From: a virus
Lineage: Duplodnaviria; Caudoviricetes
IMG/VR virus record: IMGVR_UViG_3300020460_000013
Coordinates: 1-64,000 of that record
Length of the DNA: 64,000 nt
Reading direction: 5' to 3' (one strand)
Each line of letters begins with the position of its first letter. Positions within the stretch are counted from its first letter, which is position 1. The notes beneath the pieces are model-generated. The model saw nothing but the letters and a program-made list of their open reading frames with translations. It did not search any database and had not been told where the DNA came from. Positions 3,086 to 31,448 of this stretch are shown here, one piece after another. The translations under genes and the position numbers were made by a program.

Positions 3086-6000
3086 CTATGCAATCGCAAG
3101 GAAGATATATCTTGCACCATTTATATTAATTGGACACCCACCATTTTGAGGTAAACTTTGTGTTGCACCATTTGTATATGAGTTTGCCTTCACTGTAAAA
3201 CCATTTGCAAATGGATCTATAACGTCTTGAGTAGCTGGTTGATCAGTTCTATTTAAATATGTGAAATAATCAGAAGCTCCAGTTCTAATATTAGATTGAT
3301 AATAACTGGTACTTGCTTGATGTGCATCTCCACTTTCAAATACTATCCACGGCCCTTTATCATCTTCTCTTTTAATTAATATAAATCTTGCATTACCAGA
3401 AAATCCACAATTAACATTTACATCACTTGTACCAGTTCCAAGATAATATCCAACTTTACTTACACCAGGCAATGTTGCAAACATTATACACTGATGATAA
3501 TAAGGATCACTGCCACCATTATTAGCTGCCTTACCACCACCAAGTGTTATATCTGTAGATGATACTGAAAGACCAGCCGAAAAATGACTACCAGATGCAT
3601 CATCAGCAGATCCAACAGAAATACTTCCATCTCCTACATAATTTGGTGTATTTGTGTTTGTAAATGAATCATCTGCTCTATATGTTCCAAACCCATTATT
3701 ATCGCTTGTGTGTGATCCAGTTCCCCTATTAAACATCATTTTCATGGAAGTCCAATCACCAGAACCAGCTGGTGTCATATCTTTATGATAAACTTCCCAA
3801 CCAGTATTTAAACTACCAAAACTACCAACACCAGTGCTATAATTTGAAAAAACTTGAAACCTTGCCATCTTAAATATTAACATCTCTGGAGCTACACCCA
3901 ATGCATGAGGTTTTGTCATAGTTGTACCACCCCCACGATAATGAATAATATCCATAAAACCTCTTGCTCTTTTAAACATATGAGCATACATTCTAGAATT
4001 TTGATAGTTTGTATTTGTTGGATTAACAACATTCCATGTTTGTGATGTTTGTGGATAAGTCAGACCAAAACCAGAGGACATACTAAAAGGATTAGTTCCT
4101 TTGAAGGTTGTATAAGGAAACAAATCACTTTGAACACGATTATCACGAGCGTCTAAAGTTGATGGAGCATATTTACCCCAACCTCTTGTCATAATTCTCA
4201 TATGATTGTAAGTACTACTATGAATATTCGCATCATTAACTATAACTAAATCTGGTTTGAATAAATTAGGAACTTTGTGATCATTATGTATTGATGTAGA
4301 TGAAATTGAACCAAAAGTTGCAGCTTGATGACCAATAAGACTAAGAGGACTACCAATACTAAAATTATCGCCAACTATTGGATGACTATCTTTTGCTCTA
4401 GAAATAGCATAAACTTGTCTACCTTCGGTTGGAGATAATTCATCTCTACGAATAGCTACGTACAAATACTTAATACCGCCTCGATTCCAATTCCAACTAT
4501 TATACTGTCCATTAGCATAACCATTTTCTCCAGTTGCACTTGTGCCATTTCCTATTCCTCTTACCTCAAAACCATTTGCCATTGGGTGACCAACATCTGA
4601 ATGATCGTGATATTTTCCTCTATCAAATATTGGATCACTACCGATTGAGTGAAATCCTTGCAAATTATATTGAAATGTTGCATCATATCCTTCACCTTGA
4701 GTCCAATCCCAACCTCTTGTTGTATCAAATATAGTCCATCCACCATCACCATCCATAGCTTTAATTAGTACCCATTGAGGCTCCCAACCCAAATCAACAA
4801 ATACACCACTATCGTATGGACTAGGCCCATATGAATTTACAACACCAGGCGAAACATAAGACGCTACTCTTTCATGACCTAGATTATTAGTTGTTGCACT
4901 TGACCAACCATTTCCAGTATAAGATCCTACTGCAATGTTTCCTGTAGTTCTTTGGTCTGCAAACAAATATGCATAATATTTTACACCAGTATTATTACCA
5001 GCTCTTTTTGTAATATAATTAGGGGGTGTATGATTATTTGGATACCCACCAGAAACACCCTCAGCGTGAGAAACAGTAAAATATGTGCTTGTTGGAGTCG
5101 CAGTATTATTAATATCTCCACCAAAATTTTTATGAGGATGTGCAGTATCATGATAATTACCCCAATTATTAAAAGAATTATATTCAAATGCACCATATCT
5201 ATTTAAAAAACCCATTGCATTTGGCATATCTTTATGCCATACTCTTGGATATTCATCAGAAGCAGTAACTTCACTTATCACAATCATTGCAGGCACAGAT
5301 TGTAAATTATGAGAAATTTGTCTATTAGTAGTTCCATCGCCTGTCCATTCTACAAGATCAAAAAACTTTGGATACGCTTTCATTCCCCAAATACAATATT
5401 TTCCACTATCAGAAGATACTGGTGTTTCTGGATGTATTCCAACTTTAGTTCTATCAAAATATCTAATTCCAGAATCATTAAAATAACCATAAAAAGGACT
5501 AGGCTGTTGAAAAGTTGCATATGCATTTGAAACTTGGTTAGGTTCATCATTATTATTTGAACCTACACTTCCTGTTTGTTGGTAGTTAGCTCTTATAGTA
5601 TCTATAACTTGATTATCACAATGTTTTCTTGTTTGTTGATTAGTGACTGAAGTAACATCAATAGTTTTTTCTCTTTTAATATTACCTAAAAGATAAAAAC
5701 CTCTATTAGAATTTGTATTACTCCAAGTATATTCTGAATCTCTTATTGCTATGTACATAACACTCATATCGGCTGCAAAATAAGCTCCACCACCCTGGCC
5801 AGGTACAGTTTTAAAACCTTGACTATGAACAACTAATGTGTCATTTGCACCATTACCTAAATGCCAATCAGCTATTTGAGAACCAGCGTGTGTACCTGTT
5901 ATCGCACCACTAGTACCATTTCTATCCGAACCACCCCAAACTCTTTTTATATGAGATGACTTATCATAACTATCACTGCCCCAATATAATTTTTTATCCA

Positions 6001-7246
6001 GTAAATTATCACCAGAGTTATGTCCACCTAAGTTTCCACTACTTCTCCAATATGGAAATGTCAGTATTGTTTGAGGACGCCAACCAAGATTTACACTCAA
6101 ACCACCTGTCTGATCTGAAGCACTAACTCCAAAATTTCCCACTTTAATCATAGAAGATGAACTTGTATCATGACCCCATAGATAAGCTATATACTCTACG
6201 TTATTTTCATTTGTATAACCACTACAAAGAACTGGATTAGTATTTGTACTATGACCTACTGTAAAATTTGTAGTAGTAGGGGGTTTAGCATTAGTTCCAT
6301 CCCCCATATTATATTTAAGGTCAAATGTTAAAGTATTATAAGATAAACTATTATTCGATCCTAAGTTGTTTTGTGTGCCAGTAGTTGAATCAAACCATTC
6401 TCCAATTTGATTGTTACCAAGAGTTGTATTGTTAATTCCGCCTTCAAATTGTGGATATAATACATATCTTAAACTGGTAAGTTGACCATTCGCTGATGGA
6501 TCAATAACAAAAAGAGTATCATAACGTAAACCAGATGTGTATGTTCCTAATCTTTTAATTATCATTAATCCTGGCTGACATTGTAGACCATGTGATATTT
6601 GACGATCTAAAGTTCCATCGCCTGTCCATTTGACTACATCAAAAAACTTAGGTTTTGCTCTAAAAGTATAACCTAAATATGTTTGACCATCTGTATTTAA
6701 ACAATTAGTTGCTTGTGCTTGTCCATATCCCCATTTATAACCACTTGTTGTATATTGAAAAAAATTAGAGTTCCCTTCTAATGTTGTTTCTTCTGGATAA
6801 TTATTACCTGGCCCGCCATTTGTAAAGAAAACTTTTGAATTTCCTCTTTCTGAATCTAGAAACATAGGAGAAGTTTCCATGTGTCTATTACTATTAGTAC
6901 CTTGTTGTTTTTGTTCTCCATAACCTTTAATAAAAGTCATAGTTTTATTATTAACCATATCAATACCATTGACAATCTCTTGTCCATATGGTGATTGACC
7001 TGTCCACATATCTACAGAATAATAATCATCAATATCAGTAGATGGTGTTCCAGATAAATCAACTCCTGTATCTATTTCTCCTACAGATTGTGGACTTCTA
7101 ACCTCTCCATAACTACCAGTAGTACCACCAAATTGATAAGTAGAAATGTTAAAAAGACCAGTACTGTTACCACCTTCTCCTAAAGGACTACCTTGACCAG
7201 TTTGAGAAACACCAGATGTTGGAAATATTTTTTTCGATTGACTCAC
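3086..7246 (-). CDS. Large putative adhesin / receptor-binding protein with three DUF7483-like repeats (1386 aa)
   Basis: Three FxDxxxW/YxG..H.L...P units; G/N/S/T/Y-rich; GTG start overlaps the upstream TAG. Confidence 0.7.
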   Translation of the reverse strand: MSQSKKIFPTSGVSQTGQGSPLGEGGNSTGLFNISTYQFGGTTGSYGEVRSPQSVGEIDTGVDLSGTPSTDIDDYYSVDMWTGQSPYGQEIVNGIDMVNNKTMTFIKGYGEQKQQGTNSNRHMETSPMFLDSERGNSKVFFTNGGPGNNYPEETTLEGNSNFFQYTTSGYKWGYGQAQATNCLNTDGQTYLGYTFRAKPKFFDVVKWTGDGTLDRQISHGLQCQPGLMIIKRLGTYTSGLRYDTLFVIDPSANGQLTSLRYVLYPQFEGGINNTTLGNNQIGEWFDSTTGTQNNLGSNNSLSYNTLTFDLKYNMGDGTNAKPPTTTNFTVGHSTNTNPVLCSGYTNENNVEYIAYLWGHDTSSSSMIKVGNFGVSASDQTGGLSVNLGWRPQTILTFPYWRSSGNLGGHNSGDNLLDKKLYWGSDSYDKSSHIKRVWGGSDRNGTSGAITGTHAGSQIADWHLGNGANDTLVVHSQGFKTVPGQGGGAYFAADMSVMYIAIRDSEYTWSNTNSNRGFYLLGNIKREKTIDVTSVTNQQTRKHCDNQVIDTIRANYQQTGSVGSNNNDEPNQVSNAYATFQQPSPFYGYFNDSGIRYFDRTKVGIHPETPVSSDSGKYCIWGMKAYPKFFDLVEWTGDGTTNRQISHNLQSVPAMIVISEVTASDEYPRVWHKDMPNAMGFLNRYGAFEYNSFNNWGNYHDTAHPHKNFGGDINNTATPTSTYFTVSHAEGVSGGYPNNHTPPNYITKRAGNNTGVKYYAYLFADQRTTGNIAVGSYTGNGWSSATTNNLGHERVASYVSPGVVNSYGPSPYDSGVFVDLGWEPQWVLIKAMDGDGGWTIFDTTRGWDWTQGEGYDATFQYNLQGFHSIGSDPIFDRGKYHDHSDVGHPMANGFEVRGIGNGTSATGENGYANGQYNSWNWNRGGIKYLYVAIRRDELSPTEGRQVYAISRAKDSHPIVGDNFSIGSPLSLIGHQAATFGSISSTSIHNDHKVPNLFKPDLVIVNDANIHSSTYNHMRIMTRGWGKYAPSTLDARDNRVQSDLFPYTTFKGTNPFSMSSGFGLTYPQTSQTWNVVNPTNTNYQNSRMYAHMFKRARGFMDIIHYRGGGTTMTKPHALGVAPEMLIFKMARFQVFSNYSTGVGSFGSLNTGWEVYHKDMTPAGSGDWTSMKMMFNRGTGSHTSDNNGFGTYRADDSFTNTNTPNYVGDGSISVGSADDASGSHFSAGLSVSSTDITLGGGKAANNGGSDPYYHQCIMFATLPGVSKVGYYLGTGTSDVNVNCGFSGNARFILIKREDDKGPWIVFESGDAHQASTSYYQSNIRTGASDYFTYLNRTDQPATQDVIDPFANGFTVKANSYTNGATQSLPQNGGCPININGARYIFLAIA

Positions 7247-7821
7247 TACTTCAGATCCTGTCCTAATTTAAATGAATATACTGTCGAACCACCATCATGT
7301 GTATAAAATCCAAATAAATCATGAGCTCCTAAAGTATTTGTAATAGTAGGTGCATTTGAACTACCACCAGCCCAATAAAATTCATGATCTGTGGTTGGAT
7401 TAGAAACCCAACTTATTGTTTGTAAAGTTCCAGATGCTGGTTGTTTTAATTTCAAGGTAAAGAAAAATGCAGTTCCATCTCCAGTGTTTGGAGTATTATC
7501 TGGTGCAGGCACATTTGTTAAATCTATACTTGTTACTGAATCACCACTTGCATTTCCACCAAAATTGTGATAGAAGTTATTTCCATTACTAAAATCTAAA
7601 GTAAGAACTCCACTATTAAAAGTTGCAGCTTGAAAATTTTCTACGATACCACCACTTCCTTTTAAATCATTTGCAAAATCAAATGCAGTTGATAATGCAA
7701 GTTTTGCTGGTGTTACAGCAGTATCTTGTATTTCGGCAGTTGTAATTGCATTTGCAGCTACATCTTCTGCAACAATAACATTTGCACCGATTGCTCTTGA
7801 GTTAATTTTTCTAATAGGCAT
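7246..7821 (-). CDS. Short fibre/adaptor protein (191 aa)
   Basis: AVTxAK repeats plus a C-terminal domain shared with three paralogues in this window. Confidence 0.75.
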   Translation of the reverse strand: MPIRKINSRAIGANVIVAEDVAANAITTAEIQDTAVTPAKLALSTAFDFANDLKGSGGIVENFQAATFNSGVLTLDFSNGNNFYHNFGGNASGDSVTSIDLTNVPAPDNTPNTGDGTAFFFTLKLKQPASGTLQTISWVSNPTTDHEFYWAGGSSNAPTITNTLGAHDLFGFYTHDGGSTVYSFKLGQDLK

Positions 7822-7855
7822 TTTCTATTATCCTGTTTTTATCTATTTATTTCTT

Positions 7856-10654
7856 CTATTCATCTACAAAAGCAAGAAATATTCTTCTTGTTTGGTGTGT
7901 TGAATTGTAAGTTCCTTCATTAAATTGTCCTGTTCTTACAACAGTAAATCCACCAGCAGGCCCACCATAAGTAGGATGTGGTCTTATAGTTTCATGACTT
8001 ATATTATTAGTATTACCAGTTTCTTCATATTGAGTATTATTCCTAAAATGATCAAATCGTTGAAGTCTAGTTAAATATCCACCATTACCATCATTTGCAG
8101 ATGCACTATAATTACCACCACCATATATTGAACCAGATGATTTTGTCCAAAGATAAGGAAAACCATGCTGATCCCATCTCCAAACCATAACAAATTGTGG
8201 TTGTTTATTTCCAAATCCACAATCTACATCATTATGACCAGTATGGCCAGGAATGCTAGCCCAATTAGGATCTATCATATCAAAGTAACCTACTTTACTA
8301 ATTCCAGGCAGAGTTGCGAAAAGATACACAATATAAGGTTTTGGTATACCACTACTGCCACTTCCACCAGCTGTATGATTAAGAGCAGTTTGATAAGATG
8401 TATTTCCTAAGTATATGTATTTTTCTGGTTCTGGGCCTCCAGTTAAGGTATCATAAGAAGGTAAATATTGATCATTTCCCATATCTGATGTTGGCCAAGT
8501 GTTATTCGTGTTGGTCAAATTATTTTGATAGTTACTCATTAACATATTTGAATTACCACCAGTATTTCTGTGAGAAAGATACTCTGGTAAAACTTTATAA
8601 TCTTTATGCCATAAATACCACGGCGAGGTATGTGCAGTAATACCATTAGCTTGATATGTGTTATAAGTTTGCCACATTTCATTTGATAGAGGTTTAATAA
8701 TAATTAATTCTGGTTTTACACCTAAGTTATGAGCTAATGCTCTGCCTGGAGCTGACGAATAAGTTTGACCATCACCTATGTAGATAAAAGAGTCATAAAA
8801 ACCTTTTCCTCTTTTTAAAAGAAAATTTACCCAATTTTTTGAAGTATCACCAGCCGAAGAATTTGCATCAAGTTCAACTAACTGATCTGGTTCTTTATTT
8901 GTTTCATCATTTTGAGCAGATAACAATGAAAAAGGAGATCCACGAAATTCGTATCTAGTAGGCCCATATCCTACTCCATAACCAGAACCTTCCTCTTCGT
9001 TCCTAACTGGTCTTAAACTTCTACTAGATCTTAGTCTATCAAAAATATGTGTTGCTGCATTATAAGTAGATCCAACTGTATCTCTTGGTACTCTCCACCA
9101 AGTATCAGAACTTCTTAATCTTTGATTAACATTTGCAGGCCAAGGTGATGACCAAGCACTATCAGCAGACGATTTAAAAACTTGAGCGATTGAAGTTGGT
9201 TGAGGCATTGATTTTTTTATTGCTAACCAACATACAGTATATGTGTGTTGAGTATCTCTACCCTTTAATACAGAATTTTGATCAAAATGGTTTGTGCCTC
9301 CAATTTTAAATCCTCTTGGATAAATTATTAAGTTATTACAACTTCTAGCTTGATTTCCTATATCATAACCAGTATGATCTCCAAATGAGAAAAATGGATC
9401 ATTGAAATGGTCAGTACCAACTGCTCCAGATGGTGGATTTGCTATTTCTGTGTGTCTATGCCATGCACCATTCATACCACCAAGTTCATTATCAAAAAAA
9501 TAAAATTGAGAAAAATATTGAGTAAACTGATTAGTTAGAGATCCAGTGGTCAGATCTATGGGTCTATTGATTGCTCTTACCATTAAAAAAGATGGTTCAA
9601 ATCCAATATCAATGTAGTTATCATTAGAATCACCCATACCAAGGCCTGCTCCACTATTACCATATGGATTAGTAGCAGTAGAAGTAGCATTTCCATAATA
9701 ATAATAACCAGTTCTTATAATACTGTCTGTAGATGTATCATTTGCCCATAAGTAAGCAACATACTTTCTACCAGAGGTATTTGTATGTGCATGACCTACT
9801 CTAAATTTATATGCATCTGGTAAACTTGTTCCCCATATATTATTAAAGGTAGCTAAACCATTATAATTAAAAGTTCCAGTATTATTCCAACCACCAACAA
9901 AATTAAGTGCAGAGTTAACAGAATCAGTTTGATTACCATTAAAACTAGTATTGCCATAGTCTGAAAATCTACATGGAACAAAAGCAGGATTTGCTGAAGT
10001 AGATGTTCCTGTGGCTTGTACTTCTCTATCAAAAATTATCATAAAACCTGGCGTTACACCTAATCCATGCTCAAGTTCTTGATTAGTTGTTCCATCGCCA
10101 GTATATGTTATAACATCAAAAAACTTTTCGGCACGTCTAAAGGTGAGTGAATGAAAAGATGGTCTATTAGTTGCAGTTACATTACTTACATCTACACTAA
10201 GTTGTGATCTATTTACTTGCGGCCATGTTCCTAACTGATATCCATTGGTATAGAATTGTTTTATTGCTTCGTTATTAGAAATTTCAGTATTTGAACCAGA
10301 TGCATAAGTAAAGCCTGGATTGTTTGTAGCACTTCCAGTTGTTGGATAATAAGTACTGGTAAGGCCTGGTAAAGGAAAAGCTCTATCTCCACCTCTTTCT
10401 GTGTCAATAAATGACCAAACACCCATGCTAGAATTAATTGATTGTGTTGCAGTATATTCACTCCAAGCATCCATAAGTTTAGTAATAACTAAACCACCAT
10501 TATCTAATAAATTTACATTATTGTGTATGTCTAAAGCTGTATTGTTAGTTGATCTGTATGTAAAAGATGAAAATACTTCACCACTTTCACCAGATGTTGA
10601 TAAAGGGGCAATACCACCAGAACCACCTTTTGAAAATTTTCTCCATATACTCAT
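7856..10654 (-). CDS. Large putative adhesin with two DUF7483-like repeats (932 aa)
   Basis: FFDVITYTGDG..HGLGVTP and FYDSFIYIGDG..HNLGVKP; shares FATLPGxSKVGY with the 1386-aa protein. Confidence 0.7.
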   Translation of the reverse strand: MSIWRKFSKGGSGGIAPLSTSGESGEVFSSFTYRSTNNTALDIHNNVNLLDNGGLVITKLMDAWSEYTATQSINSSMGVWSFIDTERGGDRAFPLPGLTSTYYPTTGSATNNPGFTYASGSNTEISNNEAIKQFYTNGYQLGTWPQVNRSQLSVDVSNVTATNRPSFHSLTFRRAEKFFDVITYTGDGTTNQELEHGLGVTPGFMIIFDREVQATGTSTSANPAFVPCRFSDYGNTSFNGNQTDSVNSALNFVGGWNNTGTFNYNGLATFNNIWGTSLPDAYKFRVGHAHTNTSGRKYVAYLWANDTSTDSIIRTGYYYYGNATSTATNPYGNSGAGLGMGDSNDNYIDIGFEPSFLMVRAINRPIDLTTGSLTNQFTQYFSQFYFFDNELGGMNGAWHRHTEIANPPSGAVGTDHFNDPFFSFGDHTGYDIGNQARSCNNLIIYPRGFKIGGTNHFDQNSVLKGRDTQHTYTVCWLAIKKSMPQPTSIAQVFKSSADSAWSSPWPANVNQRLRSSDTWWRVPRDTVGSTYNAATHIFDRLRSSRSLRPVRNEEEGSGYGVGYGPTRYEFRGSPFSLLSAQNDETNKEPDQLVELDANSSAGDTSKNWVNFLLKRGKGFYDSFIYIGDGQTYSSAPGRALAHNLGVKPELIIIKPLSNEMWQTYNTYQANGITAHTSPWYLWHKDYKVLPEYLSHRNTGGNSNMLMSNYQNNLTNTNNTWPTSDMGNDQYLPSYDTLTGGPEPEKYIYLGNTSYQTALNHTAGGSGSSGIPKPYIVYLFATLPGISKVGYFDMIDPNWASIPGHTGHNDVDCGFGNKQPQFVMVWRWDQHGFPYLWTKSSGSIYGGGNYSASANDGNGGYLTRLQRFDHFRNNTQYEETGNTNNISHETIRPHPTYGGPAGGFTVVRTGQFNEGTYNSTHQTRRIFLAFVDE

Positions 10655-10656
10655 AT

Positions 10657-11181
10657 CTATCCAGCTGCATCTATTGATCTAATACCATAATAGGTTACCC
10701 CACCATCTGTAGTGAAAAATTGTAAAATATCTGTTTCTCCATTTGCTGGAGTTGTCGGTGTATTTCCACCTTCCCATTTTATGGCACCATTTGTTGTATT
10801 ATCTGCTTGTTTAAAAACATAGGTCACAGTATGAGCACCACCAGCGGTAAGTTTTAACGTAAATCCCTGTGCAGTTCCACTTGCTGGTGGATTGTTTATT
10901 GTGAGTGTAGTAGTACCACTTGTTGTTAAATCAAAAACATTTCCAGTTCTCATATCTAATGTAGGAGTTGTTCCAGATAATGTTTGTTTAGTTTCGTGAT
11001 ATCTTCCAGACTTTATAATTCCAGTAAAATTGTAATCATTTGCAAGATTAACCTCTGAACTACCAACAGCATCAGCTGCAATTTCAGAAGAACCTACTGC
11101 GTTTGTAGCAATCTTTGCAGAAGTAATTGCATCATCATCTATATCTAAAAGCATTGTTGGTGTTTGTCCTATAAATGGCAT
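10657..11181 (-). CDS. Short fibre/adaptor protein (174 aa)
   Basis: MPFIGQTP start, AITSAKIA repeats, shared C-terminal domain. Confidence 0.75.
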   Translation of the reverse strand: MPFIGQTPTMLLDIDDDAITSAKIATNAVGSSEIAADAVGSSEVNLANDYNFTGIIKSGRYHETKQTLSGTTPTLDMRTGNVFDLTTSGTTTLTINNPPASGTAQGFTLKLTAGGAHTVTYVFKQADNTTNGAIKWEGGNTPTTPANGETDILQFFTTDGGVTYYGIRSIDAAG

Positions 11182-11190
11182 TTTACTTTC

Positions 11191-11496
11191 CTAACTAGGT
11201 TTGGTTGGCCAATCTGAAGATTCTAAATTAGGCCAGTTTTTGTGTGTCGGTAAATCTCTTAAAGCTTTTCTATATGTTTTCATATCAGATGACATAGTAA
11301 CATCTGAATTTGCTGTCCAATCAGTTTCTTGTAACAACTGATTTCTTCTATCTCTGTTTGTAATCTCTAATAATGCATTTGTTTCTTCTTCTGAAGGAGA
11401 TTTATGAATATCATAAGTTGTAGTTCCTATAAGATAAGATTTTGCATCATCTTCAATTTCAATTATTTTATTATTATGTATTATAGTTTGAACCAT
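11191..11496 (-). CDS. Tail fibre assembly chaperone-like protein (101 aa)
   Basis: RNQLLQETDW...YRKALRDLP...WPTKP motif of Tfa/APC-type chaperones. Confidence 0.8.
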   Translation of the reverse strand: MVQTIIHNNKIIEIEDDAKSYLIGTTTYDIHKSPSEEETNALLEITNRDRRNQLLQETDWTANSDVTMSSDMKTYRKALRDLPTHKNWPNLESSDWPTKPS

Positions 11497-11497
11497 A

Positions 11498-12442
11498 CTA
11501 ATCTCTCCTTAATATTCTAATATCGCCTGACATATTTTGTGTAGAAAGGAATAATCTTACTTTATCTACATTAGTACCAAGAGTTCCATTAACAGTTAAA
11601 TAAGTTGTTTGAACTGTATAAGTTCCAGCTGCATAATTGTGATACATACCCCACATCGCTGGATGACTAGTTCTAGTTAAGGAGTTATTTGTTGTATTAT
11701 GTTGAAAATACTGCCAAGTTCCATGAACACCATATGGCCCCTCACCACTTGTCGAGTTAAGAGTACCTATTGGATCACTTGTTGGATTTGTAAGTATTCC
11801 TGTGGTACTCGCACCACCTTGTGATCCTTGATATAGAGCAGCCTGTCCACTTCTTCCTATTCTACTATAAATAGTATTAATATTAAAAGTACTGTTATTA
11901 ACATCACTAAATTCACAAGCAAAATAAGTAGCAGAACTAGTAGTAGCATTTGCAGAATATATATCTGCTTCAATTACATATCTTTTATTTGGAACTACAT
12001 CAAAAACTAATTCTGTTGCATTACTTAAAGGATTACCATTTGCTTCTGTAAATTCTGAAACAATTGCCCAATTTTTAAGAACTGATGGCGAGGCCCAAGT
12101 TAATCCCCCAGTATTTCCAGATTGTGCAGTTAAAACATAATCATTTACTGGTGCATTACTTACTTGTAACTTTGCTTCGTTTATTGCTTGATCTGCAATT
12201 TTTCCTTGTTCAACCGCTAAATTATTAATTTTATTTGTAGTAACTGCATCATTAGCTAATTTTGCATCTGTAACTGCACTACCATTTATTTTATCAGTAG
12301 TGATTGCATTATCTACAATTTCAGTAGAATTAACTGCATTGTTTGACAGTTTTGCATTAGTGACAGCATCATCTGCAATTTTATTTGTAGATACTGCATT
12401 ATCTTTTATTAGATTTACTGGTTGTTTTCCTAAGTAAGGCAT
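11498..12442 (-). CDS. Tail fibre protein (314 aa)
   Basis: MPYLGKQP start, 10-aa AVTxxKIAxx repeats, YVLTAQSGNTGGLTW, distinct C-terminal head; followed by a chaperone gene. Confidence 0.75.
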   Translation of the reverse strand: MPYLGKQPVNLIKDNAVSTNKIADDAVTNAKLSNNAVNSTEIVDNAITTDKINGSAVTDAKLANDAVTTNKINNLAVEQGKIADQAINEAKLQVSNAPVNDYVLTAQSGNTGGLTWASPSVLKNWAIVSEFTEANGNPLSNATELVFDVVPNKRYVIEADIYSANATTSSATYFACEFSDVNNSTFNINTIYSRIGRSGQAALYQGSQGGASTTGILTNPTSDPIGTLNSTSGEGPYGVHGTWQYFQHNTTNNSLTRTSHPAMWGMYHNYAAGTYTVQTTYLTVNGTLGTNVDKVRLFLSTQNMSGDIRILRRD

Positions 12443-12451
12443 TTTAATTTC

Positions 12452-12955
12452 CTATGAAAGAGTAGGCCAATCTTCTTCTTTTAAATCAGGCCAATTTTTA
12501 TGTGTCGGTAAATCTCTCAAAGCTTGTCTATAAGTTTTTACTTTATCACTCATAGTTACATCAGATAAACCATAATAATCAGTTTTTTCTAATGTTCTAT
12601 TTCTTCTACTTCTATTTTCAGCTGCAATATTATCAGATTTTGCTTTATTCCAAGCATCATCTTGAGATTTTTTTGTTACTGTTTTTCCATCACCATCTTT
12701 ATATGCTTTATGTCTATCTGCAACTAACCATTTTTTTACCCATTGGTTTTGTTCATTTTTTTCTATTCCATCTTGCACAAGAATTTTTAGATCTGAAGTG
12801 ATAGCAGGAATTTCTCCTTGATGCAATAATTCCCAACCAAAACTTTTCGCAATATCCTCTGATGGAGTTGATGGAAAACTTGTATTTGGATTTGCAGACA
12901 CAATGTCTGACCAACTTCCTACCTTTTTAGTCGTTTCATTGTAATATTCTGACAT
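12452..12955 (-). CDS. Tail fibre assembly chaperone-like protein (167 aa)
   Basis: NPNTSFP N-terminal motif and RNRTLEKTDY...YRQALRDLP...WP C-terminus. Confidence 0.8.
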   Translation of the reverse strand: MSEYYNETTKKVGSWSDIVSANPNTSFPSTPSEDIAKSFGWELLHQGEIPAITSDLKILVQDGIEKNEQNQWVKKWLVADRHKAYKDGDGKTVTKKSQDDAWNKAKSDNIAAENRSRRNRTLEKTDYYGLSDVTMSDKVKTYRQALRDLPTHKNWPDLKEEDWPTLS

Positions 12956-12979
12956 TTTTAATTTCTCCTAATTTTATTC

Positions 12980-12987
12980 TATTTATA
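12980..12987 (-). promoter_or_regulatory. Late promoter TATAAATA
   Basis: Exact motif at the end of the upstream gene, 25 nt before the next ATG. Confidence 0.65.
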
Positions 12988-16939: not shown

Positions 16940-17845
16940 CTATGGTGATGCTGGTGCTTTTATATCTTGTCCGACAGTAAACCCATAGATATTACCACCA
17001 CTACCTGTAGCACCACTTTTCATAAAAACAAATTGATCTATAGCACCATTAGTTGATGAAAGAGTTGGTTTTTGTCCATTAGGCCAATGAACATTTGTGG
17101 GATAAACTACTGAATAATTTGATGATCCTTGTATAATAGTTATTGTCCATAAAAAAGTTTCTGTTGTTGAAGTAGGAACATTAGTAAATATAATGTCAGA
17201 ATTTTGAGTAAGTGTTATAGTAAAACTGTTAGCATTTGATAAATTCAAACTAAAATCATTTGTTCCAGATGTATAAGAAACAGATTGATGAACATCAACT
17301 AAAGGTTGATTTATACTTATAGTTGCACTAGATCCTTCTCCTTGCGTATGAGATACACTAATACCAGTACCAGCAGTAACATTTGACATATAATTACCAG
17401 TAGTATGAGTTCCTAATGTTATTGAATCATTTGCTGGTGAATATGCTATGGATGCAGTAGATCCCTCTCCTTGCGTATGTGTTATAGTAAGTCCACTAGA
17501 GCCAGGAGCAGGGATAATATCTAACACATAGTTACCAGTGGTATGTGTTCCTAATGTTATTGAATTATTTACAATTTGATCTGCACCGACAGAATCATTT
17601 GCAAGTTTATCAATAGTTACACAATCATTTGCAAGATCGGCAGTTACAATTGTTCCATCTGCTATTTTAGCAGAAGTAACTGCACTATCTAATATTTTAA
17701 TTGTTGTCACAGCATCAGTTGCAAGTTCATTTACTGTAACTGCATTGTTAGCTATATCATCTGCAACTACAATATCCTGTGCAATCTTTGATGATATAAC
17801 TGCATTATCAGCAATACCACTTGTATTAATTTTTGAAATAGGCAT
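16940..17845 (-). CDS. Fibre/adaptor protein (301 aa)
   Basis: AVTxxKIA repeats, duplicated SITLGTHTTGNY..HTQGEGS unit, shared C-terminal domain. Confidence 0.75.
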   Translation of the reverse strand: MPISKINTSGIADNAVISSKIAQDIVVADDIANNAVTVNELATDAVTTIKILDSAVTSAKIADGTIVTADLANDCVTIDKLANDSVGADQIVNNSITLGTHTTGNYVLDIIPAPGSSGLTITHTQGEGSTASIAYSPANDSITLGTHTTGNYMSNVTAGTGISVSHTQGEGSSATISINQPLVDVHQSVSYTSGTNDFSLNLSNANSFTITLTQNSDIIFTNVPTSTTETFLWTITIIQGSSNYSVVYPTNVHWPNGQKPTLSSTNGAIDQFVFMKSGATGSGGNIYGFTVGQDIKAPASP

Positions 17846-17848
17846 TTA

Positions 17849-19975: not shown

Positions 19976-19996
19976 AGTCTTTCGTTCCTTTTATCC

Positions 19997-20004: not shown

Positions 20005-20008
20005 TTCA

Positions 20009-20398
20009 CTAACCAAGTGCAACCGCCATTGCAATTGCAAATCCTTGATCTGCAACACCAGCACCACTTATGTTTCCATTTACTGTTAAATCACCACTTA
20101 TTGTTACATTATTAGGAAGTCCTATTGTTAAAGTATCAGTTGCAGAAACAGTTGCTTCTATTTCATTTGCAGTTCCATTTATTGTCAAGGTATTACCAGC
20201 TTGAAGTGCTTGTGTGTTTGACCCATCTGAAAGAGTAATTCCAGAATTTAGTTGTGTTAATGCCTCAATAATATCTGTAGGATTATTACCACCTACATTT
20301 GGAAGATTACCAATATCACCTACATCAGTTGCAAGTTGATTAAATTCTACTCTCCACTCTTCAAAGGTAAACGAGGCTGGTGCGTTACGATCTGCCAT
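20009..20398 (-). CDS. Fibre anchor protein (129 aa)
   Basis: TFEEWRVEFN N-terminal anchor motif; ends AIAMAVALG. Confidence 0.7.
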   Translation of the reverse strand: MADRNAPASFTFEEWRVEFNQLATDVGDIGNLPNVGGNNPTDIIEALTQLNSGITLSDGSNTQALQAGNTLTINGTANEIEATVSATDTLTIGLPNNVTISGDLTVNGNISGAGVADQGFAIAMAVALG

Positions 20399-20622
20399 TA
20401 TTCTCTATCCACTAGTTTTAATATGAGAGATTTGATTTCATGCATTTCACTTTTTAATGTATTAATTTCTCTTACTGCATCTCTCAGTTGATCTTTTTCC
20501 ATTTTCTTTTTCTTCATAGTTTCCATGTATGTATGATATGATGAACGACTTGTATTAATGATTGCACCACTAGATGTTTCTCTTACAAGTTCTCCATATC
20601 CTTCTACTTTAATTTTATCCAT
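20398..20622 (-). CDS. Conserved small protein of T4-like marine phages (74 aa)
   Basis: KVEG..LVR...GAIINT plus a coiled-coil C-terminus; directly follows the DUF4815 gene. Confidence 0.75.
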   Translation of the reverse strand: MDKIKVEGYGELVRETSSGAIINTSRSSYHTYMETMKKKKMEKDQLRDAVREINTLKSEMHEIKSLILKLVDRE

Positions 20623-20623
20623 T

Positions 20624-26600: not shown

Positions 26601-27286
26601 ACAACAAATCCAACACGATATGATGGTGTATTAGTATACTTATCTAAAAGAATAACTTGTTCTGTATTAGAAACAAAATGACCATTAATAAAATAAACAC
26701 CAGCATGAACTAGTACAGCAGAACCAGTACCAACTGGGGTATCAGTTGATTGTATAGTTGCATTTAATTCAGTTGTTTGATTTTCACTTAAACTTGGATT
26801 TACAGTTGTAGTATTATTTGCATTTGTTGATGTAACAACTTCTCCAGATGCAAATTTAAGTGTTGCATTATCTGTTCCACTATCTTCATATTTGATATAA
26901 AGAGTTATAGGATCAGCAGATGTGGTTGATGTTGAACTTGTAGCTGCAACTGTACCAATAACCTTTGCCTTTACACCACTTGTTGCACCTACAATTATTT
27001 TATCTAAAAAACTTGTTCTGTATGTTTCAACTTCTAATGTATTATATGCAGAGTTAACTTTAATATAATCATACTGCATATCAAAGTTAAGATCGCCTGG
27101 AATAACCATAGAACCATTTTGAAAAATATGTTCTCCAAACTTAGTAATTTGATTTTGTAGTATTGTCTGTAGTTGTGTTAATTCACGAGCTTGTACTGAA
27201 TAAGCAGGACGAAACATAACTCTGTGAAAATTCTTTGATGAGTCGTAATCATCATAGTAGGGTTTTACATTAAAGTTTGTAGCCAT
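20624..27286 (-). CDS. DUF4815/VrlC-like large virion structural protein (2220 aa)
   Basis: NVKPYYDDYD..KNFHRVMFRP..VQARELTQLQ, RRYTMRDIGRL, DPLAQTF motifs. Confidence 0.9.
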   Translation of the reverse strand: MATNFNVKPYYDDYDSSKNFHRVMFRPAYSVQARELTQLQTILQNQITKFGEHIFQNGSMVIPGDLNFDMQYDYIKVNSAYNTLEVETYRTSFLDKIIVGATSGVKAKVIGTVAATSSTSTTSADPITLYIKYEDSGTDNATLKFASGEVVTSTNANNTTTVNPSLSENQTTELNATIQSTDTPVGTGSAVLVHAGVYFINGHFVSNTEQVILLDKYTNTPSYRVGFVVSETFTTPEEDISLLDNATGSSNVNAPGAHRFKIAVTLTKKSLSATDDSDFVELGRISNGKVQSYKKNADYAELQHTLARRTFDESGNYEVRPFLAEVREHLKSGTNRGIYSASDGGDADKIVFAVEPGKAYVDGYEIETMSTQFIKTDKPRTFDRVEDKTIQTPVGNHVIVDTIKGLPNISQFGEVNLYDGLRNPFGYASYGSKVGTARVRFYDLHSSGYTNAQFKLGLFDVKLNDGISFSDVKHIRYDSGTPNSSTYTNTQWAGNAGSNNLPDFIADIVPDLVTLSGAATSSNSTTQITGSAGSSFLTELKAGDAVYLDGSFMGMVNAVSSNTVLTLTSNALSTVATAVKIQKFSAKLIRPDQKLLVFPTNYRRVRKIRGDTVSNPDNSLGTTYTITKTLSATSSGTGAVTFDLDPNEEFQSTSDIGNYNLVVGNGTNGGNQVILTSSSITLSNSNRTAVITTSGNNTAYKLIAAVKVSGAKGQEKTKTLVSGEIKNTSTQAESQNTEIKLGKADGYQLVSIKMAADFTANATASDPDITSRYTFDGGQRDAFYDLARINLKPGQPVPTGRLRITFNYFTHSSSGGGDYFSVDSYALNYEDIPSYTSTQGNGRKFELRDCLDFRPRIDDTGANFTGTNAILSEIPKFGTNAEADFSYFLGRKDLIFVDRLGSFDVLQGVPSLNPEKPQEPENGMVLFEVAYEPYVVNLKEVRHKKLDNRRYTMRDIGRLDKRISNLEYYTSLNLLEKETADLAVKDSDGNDRLKNGFIVDNFSGHVIGDFINPDYKNSIDMKKRELRPMAFSDNVGLIESVSSNSSRTSANYRVHDDGIITLPYTETTHVENPYASDSFDINPYKVAPFNGKVVLVPYSDDWNDVTRRPDIVVNDDNNFDAIKEIADETGVTGVVWESWQDNWYGSPVSAGTQSLGSTQSTASTRVSGGTVTTTTETSQSREVFSQTVGQVRSGIETTLQSTVETHNMGDRIVGISMIPFIRSRPVSISIQNMKPNAKLYGFFDNENVTSFIRQADIFNLTITQQTLTDNGPIELSPNQLETPGASAASDSGRIWDGATDAVQAFGFGDIIRNSTHTATAVTNVSFTGTGGSDTTSAQVTVASVDEIKPGHHIQLSSLTGTTELNFTVSRNNNYVVTAVDSSTKIVTIGAIGGGRLDDGSNSLTSSGAQTGTLQRLQASAHIATQGPGTSTARDVFVTNVLNGFAVGETVNGTIAKISNGKVNITMVVSSINGSTVTTSAPTMKTNSSDMITNANGQFVGVFYIPNTEEVRFRTGERLLRLIDNINNSTEFGLWSTKGEREYNATGIAEEREQTILNIRKAHFQRDYKEETQTVNRTVYGAVQTSTRPIASAFVADPPPPPPDPPQRHDPLAQTFLNVGQEGAFVTSVDLFFSVKGTRPVTVQITDTIDGFPSNKVMSEVTLEIDDINVSDDASSATRFTFPSPVYLKDDINYAILIKVDEPGTRVFFSEVGGTNLTDSRLISANPLTGTLFLSQNGQTWTPHQTRDVKFTLYRADFDISGTGTPSFVNTTVPADTLKFNPFQTNTGTGTNDDLDTKVRVFHQNHGMKANDKVTISNVANGFYGAESTTQGITSDALNGTHTISSADNDSYIIAITDDAAATNIPGGKPALKSVFSGGNGVVATRNLAADIVQLAVSEIKVPGTTIGYQWTGMNTSYTKQSPRSIPENRSYYPPSREIVASEVNQNNSLSGGRTGNSSLVAGTSANVVASMKSTSSFLTPVLDSERISLCLTSNKISNYTRSTFNDTDLDDRALSASTAITMDATGTISVGSSGTIRDEIKTLDIGKEITISGGNNDGNTFTVTSVADDGSSFNVSPATAADSSNTSTTITQHERYLDGIAPTGTSNASNYMTKRFSLDNPATALKVLFDANKPSSSTINVYYKIVEEGDTRDFDKIPYRLATIDNLDSSDDNPNLFKEREFTINDLNSFSSAAIKIEMKSSNSVFVPRIKNLRVLALAL

Positions 27287-27303
27287 TAAATCAAATTCCT
27301 AAT

Positions 27304-28842
27304 TTAAAATTCTATAACTATTTTTATATCTTCTGTTTGGTCTGATGCTCTGGAGATTGGTCTACGATTTTCTACATAGATAATATTTCCACTATCATGT
27401 TCTAGTTCTGGTGGTGCATATCCATTTGCAAATGTTATACCAGATAATGTTTGAGATGCAGTACCACTATCTGGAGTTCCATTTGCATTACTTGATGCAC
27501 CAGTAACTAAATGATTAGAACTAAAAGCAACATGATTTCTATATGTTGATGATGAACTATTAGAGTCTATACCATAGTTTTCCCATTGTTCTTGTAAATA
27601 ATATAAAATTTTATTTGTCGCATCCCACTCAACAACTCTACCAGTTGCATTTGTTGTTGCTTGTGTTATTTTTTCGTCAACATCAAATGAACCACTTGAT
27701 GATGTCATTTTAATTGCATAAGTCATTCTTACTTGTGATACAGTAGAAACTGTCGTTCCACCTCTTAGATGTGGATCAACAACAATACCAACTTCTCTGA
27801 AATCGTTTGCAACTGTGAAGTCACCACTTTCTGTTTGTTCTAGTCTTGCATTCATCATAACAAAGTGTCCACCCAGTTCTGCAACTGGATTATGTCCATG
27901 CCCAACTCTTGGTGATATGATTGGAACAACTGTTGAACCACCACCAGATAAATTTGTTTCGTTTTGTGATAACCCAACATCAGTATAACATTTTGTTAAA
28001 TCAATAGTTCCAAAAGTATAACCAACACCACCAGCATGAATTAATGAACCATTTTGACCAAACCTAACAATATTATTACTTGCAACTTTTAATTTAACAA
28101 TACCACCAGTACCATCACCATTTACTGCTGTATAATAATCCGTATTTGCAATACTACCAGCTAAACCACTTCCAGGCGTTATACGAACAACCTGTATTGG
28201 AGCTCCATTAAAAGGTGCAGTATCACCAGATGCAGTTTCAACATCAGTAACCACACTTGCATCAGTTCTAACTGCAACAAAGTCTGTGGTTAAAAACTTT
28301 ATAGTATCAGCAGTACTTAATGTGTACATATATTGAATATAATAATTACCATGAAAAAATGGTGCAGATGCTGTTGATGTTGGTTCTGTAGTTGTATTTA
28401 ATGCAGTACCATTATCATTATCTAAAACTTTATATACTCTGTATGCAGTAGTTACAAAATAAAATGTACTATCATAAAGATTAGTCGCACCACTTGTTGT
28501 TGTATTTAAAGATGATATATCATGTTCATACATATCCAATGTAGTTGCTGTTGTTGGATAGTTTCTACGAGGAATAACAGATTCAACATCTGTAGATGTT
28601 ATCTTTTTGGCAGCTAACATAGAATCCCACTTGTAATTTTCTTCTATGACTCTATCATGTGGATTAGGTGGAGATGCATCAGTACCCCCTGTAGTTTCAG
28701 TATCTGAGTACTTTGTTGTTGTAGTAAAAGGACTTGACTTTCCTACAAACAAATAATAATTAGATGCAGCTGTTTCGGAAAAAGATTCCTTAAATTGGTC
28801 TGCATTGTGTAATCTAAATTTTTCTGTAATAATTGCTGCCAT
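27304..28842 (-). CDS. gp8: Baseplate wedge subunit gp8
   Basis: MAAIITEKFR start, VYKVLDN, SGNIIYVENRRPISRASDQTEDIKIVIEF end. Confidence 0.9.
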   Translation of the reverse strand: MAAIITEKFRLHNADQFKESFSETAASNYYLFVGKSSPFTTTTKYSDTETTGGTDASPPNPHDRVIEENYKWDSMLAAKKITSTDVESVIPRRNYPTTATTLDMYEHDISSLNTTTSGATNLYDSTFYFVTTAYRVYKVLDNDNGTALNTTTEPTSTASAPFFHGNYYIQYMYTLSTADTIKFLTTDFVAVRTDASVVTDVETASGDTAPFNGAPIQVVRITPGSGLAGSIANTDYYTAVNGDGTGGIVKLKVASNNIVRFGQNGSLIHAGGVGYTFGTIDLTKCYTDVGLSQNETNLSGGGSTVVPIISPRVGHGHNPVAELGGHFVMMNARLEQTESGDFTVANDFREVGIVVDPHLRGGTTVSTVSQVRMTYAIKMTSSSGSFDVDEKITQATTNATGRVVEWDATNKILYYLQEQWENYGIDSNSSSSTYRNHVAFSSNHLVTGASSNANGTPDSGTASQTLSGITFANGYAPPELEHDSGNIIYVENRRPISRASDQTEDIKIVIEF

Positions 28843-28864
28843 TGTTTTTTTCCTATTATAGTAT

Positions 28865-28872
28865 TATTTATA
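28865..28872 (-). promoter_or_regulatory. Late promoter TATAAATA
   Basis: Exact intergenic motif upstream of gp8. Confidence 0.75.
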
Positions 28873-28911
28873 CACCATCTTAGATTGATTGTTAATACTT
28901 TTCATTATTTA

Positions 28912-30546
28912 TCACTCATTCCATTCTAGTTTTGATCTAGTTAAATTTCCTATAGCTTCTCTTACAAATACATTCCAACTAGCATTTGCTCCAGAAGATA
29001 TTAAATATGGGTATGTGGAGTCTAAAAATGTACCACCACTAAATGTACAAGTTGTATAAGTTGAATTAAAGTGACATTGAATAATATTGATAATTCTATT
29101 TGTAGAAGAATCATAATAGTCACTTAAAATAAAAATTTTACCAGAATTAGTTACAACACAGTTTACGATTGGAGCTGGAAAATTATAGATGCTAGATATA
29201 TTTGGATGCACAGAGGATGGAATTTCAAAATAGTCTGGTGACATACCATTTCTAGTATTGATATTAGTACTAGTTCCAGTAGCATTAATTAATGTATCTA
29301 AATTATAAACTCTAAAACAAGATCTAGTTCTTCCAGTACCATCATTTAAACCTAGAGCATAACCATTTGGTAATTTATAAATCCCTTGACTAGCAGTAAT
29401 GGAATTGCTACGTTTTGCATTTGTATTTGGATAAGTTGCACCTGCTTGACCACCTTCATCAACACATATTAAGCCTCCAGAATTTCCTCCACTACCTTCT
29501 CTTGAAAAGTAATGATTATTATAATAAAAAATTGCTGGAGCACTATGACCAGTTCCCTGTGGAATATTACTAACACCATAACTTGTATTACTAATATTAG
29601 CTAATTTTAAATTAATATCATCACCAACACCATTTAGTTGTCCATAGTGTCCAGTTGTGTAATCTCCTGCTGGATTTGAACCAGAATTATCTCTATTCAT
29701 ACCATACGCTTCCATAAAGTCGAAACCATGCAACCCATGAATATTTCCATCAGCGTTTTGTAAAGTATCTTCGTGTGTTCCAGCTGCAACATATTCTCTA
29801 TCAGAACCAGATTTTCCATTGGTAGTAATACCATGTTTCTTACCACCAGAATGGCCAGCTATGTAAGCAGTTTGAGAATTTAAACTACTAGTATGATGAT
29901 TTGGTGGTCTATAAACCACTTGGCCTGGATCTGAAGGTTGAGTTATACTTGTCGGCCAATTTTGTGTATCTATTGCAACCACAGAAGGATAATTACTATG
30001 GTGTCCAAGACCACCAGATTGTCCAGCACCAGCAACATATGCACCACGCCCATTAGTTATCCAAAAATGTGATGTTGTATTATCAAACATTGTTCCATAC
30101 TCGTTTGCATTTGATACTGATTGCCAAGAGTAATAATTAAAACCATTTGTTAATTGATGAAACATACTATGATAAGAACCAGAGTCTAAAGTTGTTGAGT
30201 TTTTATGAACTCTAAAAAGACCATCTCTTACATCATATCCACTCTGATTTCCATTAAGATTATTAAGTCTATTAGGATGATGAGTACCAGTAATGTATAT
30301 GTAATCGTCATCACCTAATGTAAGTCTTGCTCGTTCAATACCATAGTTACCCCAACCATAATTATAAGTTAAAGATATGTGTCCTTTTTCAACTCTGTTT
30401 ATTGGATCTATTATAGTAATATAATTTTGAGCGGGCTTGCCACCTGTCCAGTTGGCATTGCTACCATTGTTACCCATTGGCATATAAATTAGATCTTCAT
30501 CTTGTGATCCAGCTGCACCTTGCAATATTTTCATCATATTACTCAT
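28912..30546 (-). CDS. Putative adhesin, single-unit paralogue of the 1314-aa protein (544 aa)
   Basis: MSNMMK..AAG start and VTxxGKI..FNS.Y....SGG..GN...S..EW end shared with 12983..16927. Confidence 0.6.
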   Translation of the reverse strand: MSNMMKILQGAAGSQDEDLIYMPMGNNGSNANWTGGKPAQNYITIIDPINRVEKGHISLTYNYGWGNYGIERARLTLGDDDYIYITGTHHPNRLNNLNGNQSGYDVRDGLFRVHKNSTTLDSGSYHSMFHQLTNGFNYYSWQSVSNANEYGTMFDNTTSHFWITNGRGAYVAGAGQSGGLGHHSNYPSVVAIDTQNWPTSITQPSDPGQVVYRPPNHHTSSLNSQTAYIAGHSGGKKHGITTNGKSGSDREYVAAGTHEDTLQNADGNIHGLHGFDFMEAYGMNRDNSGSNPAGDYTTGHYGQLNGVGDDINLKLANISNTSYGVSNIPQGTGHSAPAIFYYNNHYFSREGSGGNSGGLICVDEGGQAGATYPNTNAKRSNSITASQGIYKLPNGYALGLNDGTGRTRSCFRVYNLDTLINATGTSTNINTRNGMSPDYFEIPSSVHPNISSIYNFPAPIVNCVVTNSGKIFILSDYYDSSTNRIINIIQCHFNSTYTTCTFSGGTFLDSTYPYLISSGANASWNVFVREAIGNLTRSKLEWNE

Positions 30547-30557
30547 AAAGTAATACC

Positions 30558-31448
30558 CTACGATAAATCTTTACCAGCAAACATTCCATAATAGGTTGGA
30601 GTGCCTGCGTTTGGATTTTGTGTTACAAAAACAAATATATCTTCATCACTATTTCCAGATGATAACGTAGGTGGACTTCCATCTTTCCATCTAACATTAT
30701 ATCCACCCCCACCTGTCCATGTTACACTTCGTGTAGTTCCAGATGCTGGTTGTTTTATTTTTACCATAAAAACATATGCACTATTTGTAAGACTAGGTGG
30801 TGAACTAAATGTCACTACAGTATTTGTTGTATTTACTAATTGAATATTAAAAGAATTAGCAGTTGATAAATTAAGAGTATCAGTTCCATCAGATGTTATT
30901 TCTACATGAGCATCTATAAAATTATTTGATTTTATATAACCACTAAATGCATAACTATCTGTAGTATTTAATTCTGAACTTCCAACTTGGTTTGCTCCTA
31001 TTTTATCTGATGTAACTGCATTATTAGCTAATTCGCCAGTTCCAACTGCACCACTATTAATTTCACTTGACTCTACTGCATCTGCCACTATTTTTGCAGA
31101 AGTAACTGCATCATTGTTTATTTTAGAAGTAGTAACTGCATTAGCTACTATTTTATCAGAAGTAACTGAATCAGTAGCAAGAGCGAGTGGATTTACTGAT
31201 CCAGCTGCTAATTTTGCAGAAGTAACTGCATCATCAGCTAATTTTGCAGTGGTAATACCACCATCATATATTTTTGCACTTGTAACTTGTGCATCTGCTA
31301 TTTTAAGACTAGTTACTGCATTATCAGCTAATTTTGCAGTTGTAATTTCTCCAGTTCCTATTTCAGATGCAACTACTCCATCTACAATTTTAGGTGCAGT
31401 AACAGAATTATCTGTAAGTGCATTTGTTCCTATAGTATCAATTCCCAT
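30558..31448 (-). CDS. Fibre/adaptor protein (296 aa)
   Basis: About 14 AVTSxKIAxx decapeptide repeats plus the shared C-terminal domain. Confidence 0.75.
   Translation of the reverse strand: MGIDTIGTNALTDNSVTAPKIVDGVVASEIGTGEITTAKLADNAVTSLKIADAQVTSAKIYDGGITTAKLADDAVTSAKLAAGSVNPLALATDSVTSDKIVANAVTTSKINNDAVTSAKIVADAVESSEINSGAVGTGELANNAVTSDKIGANQVGSSELNTTDSYAFSGYIKSNNFIDAHVEITSDGTDTLNLSTANSFNIQLVNTTNTVVTFSSPPSLTNSAYVFMVKIKQPASGTTRSVTWTGGGGYNVRWKDGSPPTLSSGNSDEDIFVFVTQNPNAGTPTYYGMFAGKDLS

Follow-up and report, generated by a model that had tools for sequence, protein, structure and literature searches.

How might a phage hold several large, non-fibrous proteins at the ends of its fibres, each on a fibre of its own? 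The question is raised by a 64,000-nucleotide stretch of an uncultured marine T4-like myovirus (positions 1 to 64,000 of IMG/VR record IMGVR_UViG_3300020460_000013), referred to here as the window, which holds a tail and baseplate module. In this region, where all genes are on the minus strand, a gene for a short fibre is followed four times by a gene for a large partner protein, and the eight open reading frames (ORFs) are present as a first-pass annotation of the window had described them. The short fibres, or adaptors, are P0001 (7246–7821, 191 amino acids), P0002 (10657–11181, 174 amino acids), P0003 (16940–17845, 301 amino acids) and P0004 (30558–31448, 296 amino acids), and their respective partners are P0005 (3086–7246, 1386 amino acids), P0006 (7856–10654, 932 amino acids), P0007 (12983–16927, 1314 amino acids) and P0008 (28912–30546, 544 amino acids). 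The partners start −1, +2, +12 and +11 nucleotides from the adaptor stop, with the GTG start of P0005 overlapping the TAG stop of P0001 by 1 nucleotide. All four adaptor genes end in TAG (7246–7248, 10657–10659, 16940–16942 and 30558–30560), which is probably not a meaningful signal, since 17 of the 53 stops among the window ORFs are TAG.

The adaptors all carry AVT..KIA-type stalk repeats, which differ in length between them and match tail-fibre PHROGs as well as fibres of many cyanophages and actinophages. They also have in common a homologous C-terminal domain of about 110–120 amino acids (pairwise blastp E-values of 3e-7 to 4e-28), which we call the socket, located at approximately 7249–7692 in P0001, 10660–11043 in P0002, 16943–17320 in P0003 and 30561–30962 in P0004 (profile E-value 1.4e-57). 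An alignment of the four copies has 12 invariant columns, including N..F, P, W..G..PT, D..F and Y. The partners, with a G+N+S+T+Y content of 44–48%, begin with similar peptides, here called plugs: MSQSKKIF in P0005 (7208–7246), MSIWRKFSKGGSGG in P0006 (10616–10654), MSNMMKLVNAAAG in P0007 (16889–16927) and MSNMMKILQGAAG in P0008 (30508–30546). Their first residues (MSQSKKIF, MSIWRKFS, MSNMMKLV and MSNMMKIL) can be written in the common form MS..[KRM]K[ILF]. The basic and Ala/Gly-containing N-terminus was also considered as a signal peptide or signal-arrest-release anchor, which we rejected by reasoning, the tract being too short, too polar and variable (KFSKGGSGG). Behind the plug, P0005 has three DUF7483-like modules (PF24299; 91.2 bits against a Pfam gathering cut-off of 27), and a search of the ESM Atlas with it returned nothing beyond DUF7483. 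P0006 has two such modules and no Pfam match, being recognised by its homology to P0005 (E-value 2e-19) and its match to a custom DUF7483 profile (independent E-value 3e-18). Neither P0007 nor P0008 matched DUF7483, and the two have their first ~25 residues and a C-terminal region in common; the G/N/S/Y-rich body of P0008 may be a beta-propeller, a weak lead from the ESM Atlas.

We propose that the four short proteins would be trimeric stalks belonging to the tail and baseplate fibre set, each ending in a beta-sandwich knob that would act as a docking platform, the socket, for the first 8–13 residues, the plug, of the next gene's product. This peptide is predicted to be an amphipathic helix of the form small-x-x-basic-basic-aliphatic-aliphatic, usually followed by an Ala/Gly/Ser-rich linker, and the large, variable, non-fibrous body behind it (DUF7483 repeats in two partners, a possible propeller in two) would be the host-binding part carried in the virion. 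Such a fibre would be assembled in gene order from separately folded pieces, with tight translational coupling keeping both in step. Judging from the sequence comparisons that follow, we consider it fairly probable that the N-terminal peptide docks on the knob.

Two surveys showed that the pairing recurs in other phages. Using the socket profile, 80 viral loci were fetched, which held 67 non-redundant socket copies, 57 of them terminal and 56 with a downstream ORF. A strict plug pattern, ^M[SGTA]..[KRMAT][KR][ILFMV], was written from the four window peptides only and matched 26 of 52 downstream ORFs outside the window, as opposed to 7 of 380 control ORFs from the same loci (Fisher p 3.5e-21, uncorrected for the relatedness of the loci). 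By eye, approximately 14 further downstream ORFs are variants of the pattern with one residue inserted or deleted (MSTVAKKVIMGSGAV, MTIARLMQMAAGAVGGGG and others). For the opposite approach, 80 loci were fetched by the DUF7483 body, independently of the socket, and scanned with a profile from a four-sequence alignment, a six-sequence alignment being too divergent. A socket-ending ORF was found directly upstream in 56 of the 69 non-redundant complete DUF7483 proteins that had enough upstream sequence (81%). The strict pattern was found in 36 DUF7483 proteins with an upstream socket and in 2 without one, and the 20 socket-associated proteins outside the pattern begin with recognisable variants of it (MDPITQQAVLAAAG, MSNTKTVMSQAAN and others). 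Among the 13 DUF7483 proteins with no socket upstream, the 11 that do not fit the strict pattern mostly have unrelated N-termini, with 2–3 being plug-like.

Cultured phages carry the pair as well, including the roseophages CRP-4 (gp53 then gp52, MATKKKMLQAAAG), CRP-9 (gp45 then gp44) and CRP-603 (gp53 then gp52, MSNVKKLMMTAASAG). In the 595-residue database protein P0024 a socket, the residues GQV, MAIKKKLLQVSG and an SBBP beta-propeller follow one another in a single chain, making it a natural read-through or fusion; the Q at the expected stop position could be a stop-to-Gln change or an effect of gene calling. A socket gene followed by a tail protein is also seen in phi92 (L091, 6806–10155), the rV5-like phage JES2013 (L172, 4614–7881) and anhysbys (L002, 6830–10179). 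The tail proteins of these phi92-, rV5- and phAPEC8-like phages are 865–958 amino acids long, lie 0–2 nucleotides after the socket gene and start with M(S)RI[KQ]HxIDNVFQ[LM]I, a peptide class that differs from that of the window's plugs. Finding this arrangement of genes in many unrelated phages suggests a widespread means by which adhesins are joined to fibres. As a separate observation, a GIY-YIG homing-endonuclease-like ORF (MSGEFYVYALENPITGLPFYIGKG..) stands directly after the socket gene at one locus (L041, approximately 6290–7180), in the usual place of the plug protein.

The sequence of the plug did not vary with the body behind it. For 54 non-redundant DUF7483 pairs, plug distance over the first 14 residues correlated with the distance between the upstream sockets (r 0.77, and partial r 0.78 with the body controlled; permutation p 5e-4, uncorrected for shared ancestry), and the corresponding values against the first 120 residues of its own body were 0.02 and 0.15. 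On these distances the plug goes with the socket and not with the body that it precedes. The module boundary falls just after an 8–25 residue peptide in many lineages, as would be expected of a docking peptide, and the same plug classes are found on unrelated bodies (DUF7483, SPRY+DUF7483, DUF285 and SBBP propeller). In genomes with several pairs, the socket tails are of distinct types, and a particular plug type goes with each of them. Identical combinations turn up in different contigs, as in the case of the socket tail ..TRYRGAxLxDYVN with the plug MDPIT... Four contigs (L103, L123, L133 and L138; approximately 4500–9000 in each) carry a three-step daisy chain, in which three successive genes each end in a different socket tail type and are followed by the peptide classes MANNKDFLLKN.., MANDKSFKIKN.. 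and MSNVARVAGQAAN.., the chain ending in a DUF7483 protein. Such an arrangement resembles a fibre that is put together segment by segment, following the order of the genes.

The socket itself is a large family that is matched by no Pfam model, and PDB sequence searches with the socket, DUF7483 and P0008 gave nothing meaningful. With a profile made from the four window copies, 13,224 clusters (50% identity) were found at an E-value of 1e-3 or lower among 1.84 billion representatives. Of the 150 best proteins, which range from 103 to more than 2000 amino acids in length, 148 have their last socket copy no more than 15 residues away from the C-terminus. At least 290 predicted viral structures in BFVD have the socket fold, nearly all of them unnamed, with stalks that include collagen repeats, Mtd-N domains and YadA-like heads. 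There are also long fibres that contain the domain two to five times in line, which shows that a fibre can continue from the C-terminal face of the domain. AlphaFold2 modelled the socket as a nine-strand beta-sandwich with a predicted local distance difference test (pLDDT) score of 90–95 (~95 for P0003; ~90 for residues 61–174 of P0002, again with nine strands).

The four best solved structural matches of the socket are phage appendage domains throughout: the C-terminal knob of the Pa223 capsid spike gp52 (9ny6_C 196–294; Z 9.2, root-mean-square deviation 2.8 Å over 97 residues), a Klebsiella KP1 baseplate protein (Z 8.5), Acinetobacter phage Solidus gp83 (Z 8.1) and residues 79–180 of CBA120 TSP4 (7rej_A; Z 8.0). 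The gp52 knob has been described as a trimeric terminal domain (Pa223 preprint). Residues 80–178 of TSP4 are its XD1 domain, and the fold is also found in a T4 gp9 domain, in XD1 of gp10 and in the glycan-binding modules of CpaA and StcE (PMC8825819), with CpaA (Z 6.1) and StcE (Z 5.5) also among our matches. By sequence, phi92 gp140 is homologous to the socket, as are its counterparts from rV5-like and phAPEC8-like phages. Phapecoctavirus gp248-type proteins are matched by the P0003 domain (tblastn E-values of 2e-9 to 4e-9), and P0019, a representative of the socket family, matches phi92 gp140 (E-value 6e-10). A 2026 cryo-electron microscopy study of phi92 found that gp140 resembles Pa223 gp52, called its function uncharacterised and left it unplaced in the map (PMC13450770).

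Since P0003 and P0007 happen to be in frame, the only pair in the window with a continuous reading frame, we modelled the window's own read-through as a single chain made of the P0003 socket, the TAG as Q, ENLF and the first 20 residues of P0007, using an alignment of unpaired rows and a few naturally paired ones. AlphaFold2 returned the socket with a pLDDT of ~95, and the linker and plug (residues 124–140) as an alpha-helix with a pLDDT of 58–64, so the model supports a plug that is helical and amphipathic.

Several results weigh against docking of the plug on the socket. The plug was not confidently docked in this single-chain model, where an inter-subunit trimer site cannot appear. Approximately a fifth of the terminal sockets in the survey are followed otherwise, by Tfa-like chaperones, a homing endonuclease or proteins with other N-termini (including CRP-603 gp57 and P-TIM68 gp021). 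The co-variation statistics do not fully separate co-evolution from co-inheritance. Plug charge did not correlate with socket tail charge (Spearman 0.07, p 0.42), and charge complementarity was rejected, leaving the MDPIT plug and TRYRG socket tail as an anecdote. A single weight matrix for all plugs failed: when it was trained on DUF7483-type plugs, no more than 7 of the 44 socket-ascertained partners scored higher than the 99th control percentile, so the plugs fall into several classes. Regarding the fold, StcE and CpaA use it as a glycan-binding domain (Z 5.5–6.1), the Pa223 knob carries no partner (Pa223 preprint), and the TSP4 structure paper views XD1 as a spacer, with docking assigned to XD2/XD3 (PMC8825819).

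It is conceivable that the knob is itself the receptor-binding tip, lectin-like or TNF-like, and that the downstream proteins are independent virion or accessory components that attach elsewhere, with the conserved N-terminus serving that attachment. The likeness of the fold to the free terminal Pa223 gp52 knob and to the StcE and CpaA domains would fit such a tip, as would the lack of confident docking and the sockets that are followed only by a Tfa-like chaperone (L012, L073 and L088), which is usual for receptor-binding tips. We nevertheless think it unlikely, since it leaves unexplained why the peptide of the next gene co-varies with the knob and not with its own body, why 81% of the DUF7483 proteins stand directly behind a knob gene, and why several distinct knob and peptide types are kept in fixed pairs. 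The knob is, moreover, more conserved than the partner bodies, which would be unusual for a receptor-binding tip. Less probable again is that the end of the socket gene and the start of the plug gene are co-inherited as a recombination module, with crossovers at the conserved start of the body (..LNVEDVF..) and no physical contact between the products. Mantel-type statistics cannot tell co-inheritance from co-evolution, and the body-start motif could act as a crossover point; however, plug similarity is at the protein level, with different codons in P0007 and CRP-603 gp52, and plugs are conserved on unrelated bodies that have no LNVEDVF motif. A breakpoint exactly after an 8–25 residue peptide, in many lineages, implies a functional tie to the upstream gene.

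The position of the partners directly downstream of a fibre gene is also the usual place of an assembly chaperone, and they could be imagined as non-virion chaperones for the knob fibres, like T4 gp38 or Tfa. We regard this as very improbable: at 544–1386 amino acids, with repeated lectin-like or propeller-like modules, the partners have no Tfa match in PHROG or Pfam, and genuine Tfa-like genes (101–167 amino acids) are separate and nearby. Docking of the plug on the socket is our preferred explanation. The first-pass annotation had proposed that interchangeable adhesins clip onto stalks; gene neighbourhood and co-variation over approximately 140 non-redundant pairs, together with the trimeric knob or hub type of fold, give strong support to the core of this idea, a C-terminal adaptor domain that would receive the N-terminal peptide of a separately encoded adhesin, and physical binding is what we infer from them. 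A much broader version, which we put forward tentatively and consider possible rather than probable, is that the knob together with the N-terminal peptide would be a portable connector of general use, present in thousands of lineages of phages that include marine podoviruses as well as phi92- and rV5-like coliphages. Mutually exclusive types would then put different adhesins on different stalks in gene order, including multi-segment daisy chains, and the non-fibrous, possibly monomeric adhesins would perhaps be tethered by flexible linkers, with up to three on each trimeric knob.

The four pairs had also been described as two co-varying subtypes, with one pair said to be inserted separately among baseplate genes like a mobile cassette. 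The two-and-two pattern does exist in the window, with P0001 and P0002 (..GN.F, T.DGG) paired with DUF7483-like partners and P0003 and P0004 (..ANSF) paired with MSNMMK partners, though with two lineages it is indistinguishable from duplication of whole pairs. Beyond the window the common T.DGG socket type precedes many kinds of body, and in CRP-603 an MSN..KKL plug is on a DUF7483 body, so the type of body is not dictated by the type of socket; judged by sequence, what tracks socket type is the plug type. The mobile cassette did not hold up, because P0004/P0008 sits in a conserved baseplate fibre slot. Methylophilales phage Melnitz and Pelagibacter phage Mosig carry a connector and fibre in the same gp7–gp8 slot, the connector being homologous (68% identical over the N-terminal 44 amino acids) and the fibre having the same stalk repeats and another kind of tip, accompanied by a small chaperone. 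A search of 41 kb from each of the two phages gave no socket. The slot is conserved and only its distal module is exchanged.

The partners are probably adhesins, as suggested by their large, non-fibrous bodies with repeated modules, by their binding-protein-type families and by their strong variability between relatives. Between P0007 and its closest homologue, in L003 (789–4595), identity is ~80% in the first 22 residues, ~85% in the last ~240 and 25–35% in the middle thousand. We note that a variable centre between conserved ends is unusual where a protein is attached N-terminally. Behind P0007 and P0005 there are small chaperone-like genes: a 167-residue Tfa-like tail-fibre assembly chaperone (12452–12955, minus strand) directly after the former, and a 112-residue protein of the phrog_3304/1084 family (L-shaped tail fiber protein assembly; 2701–3039, minus strand) directly after the latter.

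The window is from a 101-kb viral contig that is ~63% complete and has a G+C content of ~33%. In the order of transcription, a split gp5, a nuclease, gp25, gp6 and a gp7-like protein come first, and these are followed by a 229-residue gp9/gp10-N-like baseplate connector (PF07880; 31461–32150, minus strand), P0004 and P0008. The connector, the N-terminal 44 residues of which correspond to Melnitz_162, is directly upstream of P0004 and is the probable attachment point of the P0004 fibre. After P0008 there are gp8, a 2220-residue DUF4815 protein and several small proteins, then P0003, P0007, the 167-residue chaperone and a fifth fibre of 314 amino acids (11498–12442, minus strand) with its own Tfa-like chaperone of 101 amino acids (11191–11496, minus strand), and lastly P0002, P0006, P0001, P0005 and the 112-residue assembly-type protein. 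The fifth fibre serves as an internal contrast, having the stalk repeats of the adaptors with another tip and no socket, and its chaperone occupies the place of the plug protein. By gp8 identity the nearest cultured relatives are Melnitz (54%), Mosig (43%) and Pelagibacter phage HTVC008M (39%), and a megablast of 17 kb of the window against cultured phages found no near-identical one.

Some other features of the region were seen along the way. The two Tfa-like chaperones (between 11191 and 12955) are 67% identical over their last 52 residues, and the fibre region has two paralogue pairs between 17849 and 20398, consisting of proteins of 112 and 115 amino acids (E-value 1.5e-14) and of 202 and 267 amino acids (E-value 2.8e-19). 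A partial ORF at 2–1045 has a 78-residue stretch in common with the 229-residue connector. The N-termini MPIxKIN, MPFIGQ and MPYIG recur in fibres of Melnitz and CRP-9, a hint of other docking peptides.

If the docking is physical, a simple sequence rule, a knob-ending fibre gene and then a gene with the matching peptide, would find host-recognition proteins of many uncultured marine phages, where the DUF7483, propeller and SPRY proteins concerned are now annotated as hypothetical. In that case phi92 gp140 and related proteins would gain a role, and the logic of an anchor, a branching domain and a conserved peptide, as in a few enterobacterial phages, would extend to another domain family of much greater size. 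How phages with multiple fibres avoid mis-assembly could be studied with the apparent cognate types as a natural system.

We found no paper in the literature that assigns a docking role to the socket family. In RBPseg class TC8, the C-terminal head D31 of Bas49 and Bas54, which touches an unassigned density, is a candidate for the same domain. Related logic is seen in CBA120 TSP2/TSP4, T4 gp10 with gp11 and gp12, T4 gp9 with gp34, and T2/S16 gp37 with gp38. The last of these had been cited in the first-pass annotation, and it stands as a functional analogy, with the adhesin gene just after the fibre gene and N-terminal attachment to the distal end of a trimeric fibre; homology was not detected for either partner, and P0005–P0008 matched no gp38 adhesin in Pfam or PHROG. 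The gp38 adhesin is small, has glycine-rich motifs and binds through a folded N-terminal domain. T4 gp9, gp10 and CBA120 TSP4 have the same 9-strand mixed beta-sandwich and are trimeric proteins that hold other fibres, but XD1 is an internal spacer there (PMC8825819) and a terminal domain here. The match is at the level of fold only, and the Pfam gp9 and gp10 models did not match the socket. Pa223 gp52 is the best structural match, but its knob is the free end of a capsid spike. phi92 gp140 and rV5 ORF42 are sequence homologues of the socket with a large tail protein (865–958 amino acids) immediately downstream, which differ in that the downstream peptide is of another class (MSRIKHxIDNVFQLI).

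By analogy, the closest precedent is the branching domain and conserved peptide of Klebsiella phage KP32, where gp38 attaches to the branching domain of gp37 through a conserved N-terminal peptide, and assembly is lost when the domain or the peptide is deleted (PMC13352976). No sequence similarity between the window system and that of KP32 was found. The KP32 carrier has a T4 gp10-like domain between its anchor and its own enzymatic domain, giving a branched complex, and this docking domain we take to be of the XD2/XD3 type, going by TSP4 and gp10. In the window, the domain is of the XD1 or knob type and is at the extreme C-terminus, the carriers consist only of stalk and knob, with no gp10-like jelly roll inserted before a receptor-binding domain of their own, and assembly would be end to end. 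The plug motif probably differs from that of KP32, and the distribution of the present system is very wide. What the two systems have in common is a separately encoded downstream receptor-binding protein (putatively so in the window), a short conserved N-terminal peptide on it, recognised here by conservation and adjacency, a small beta domain on the preceding fibre protein, and a peptide that appears to be movable between different bodies.

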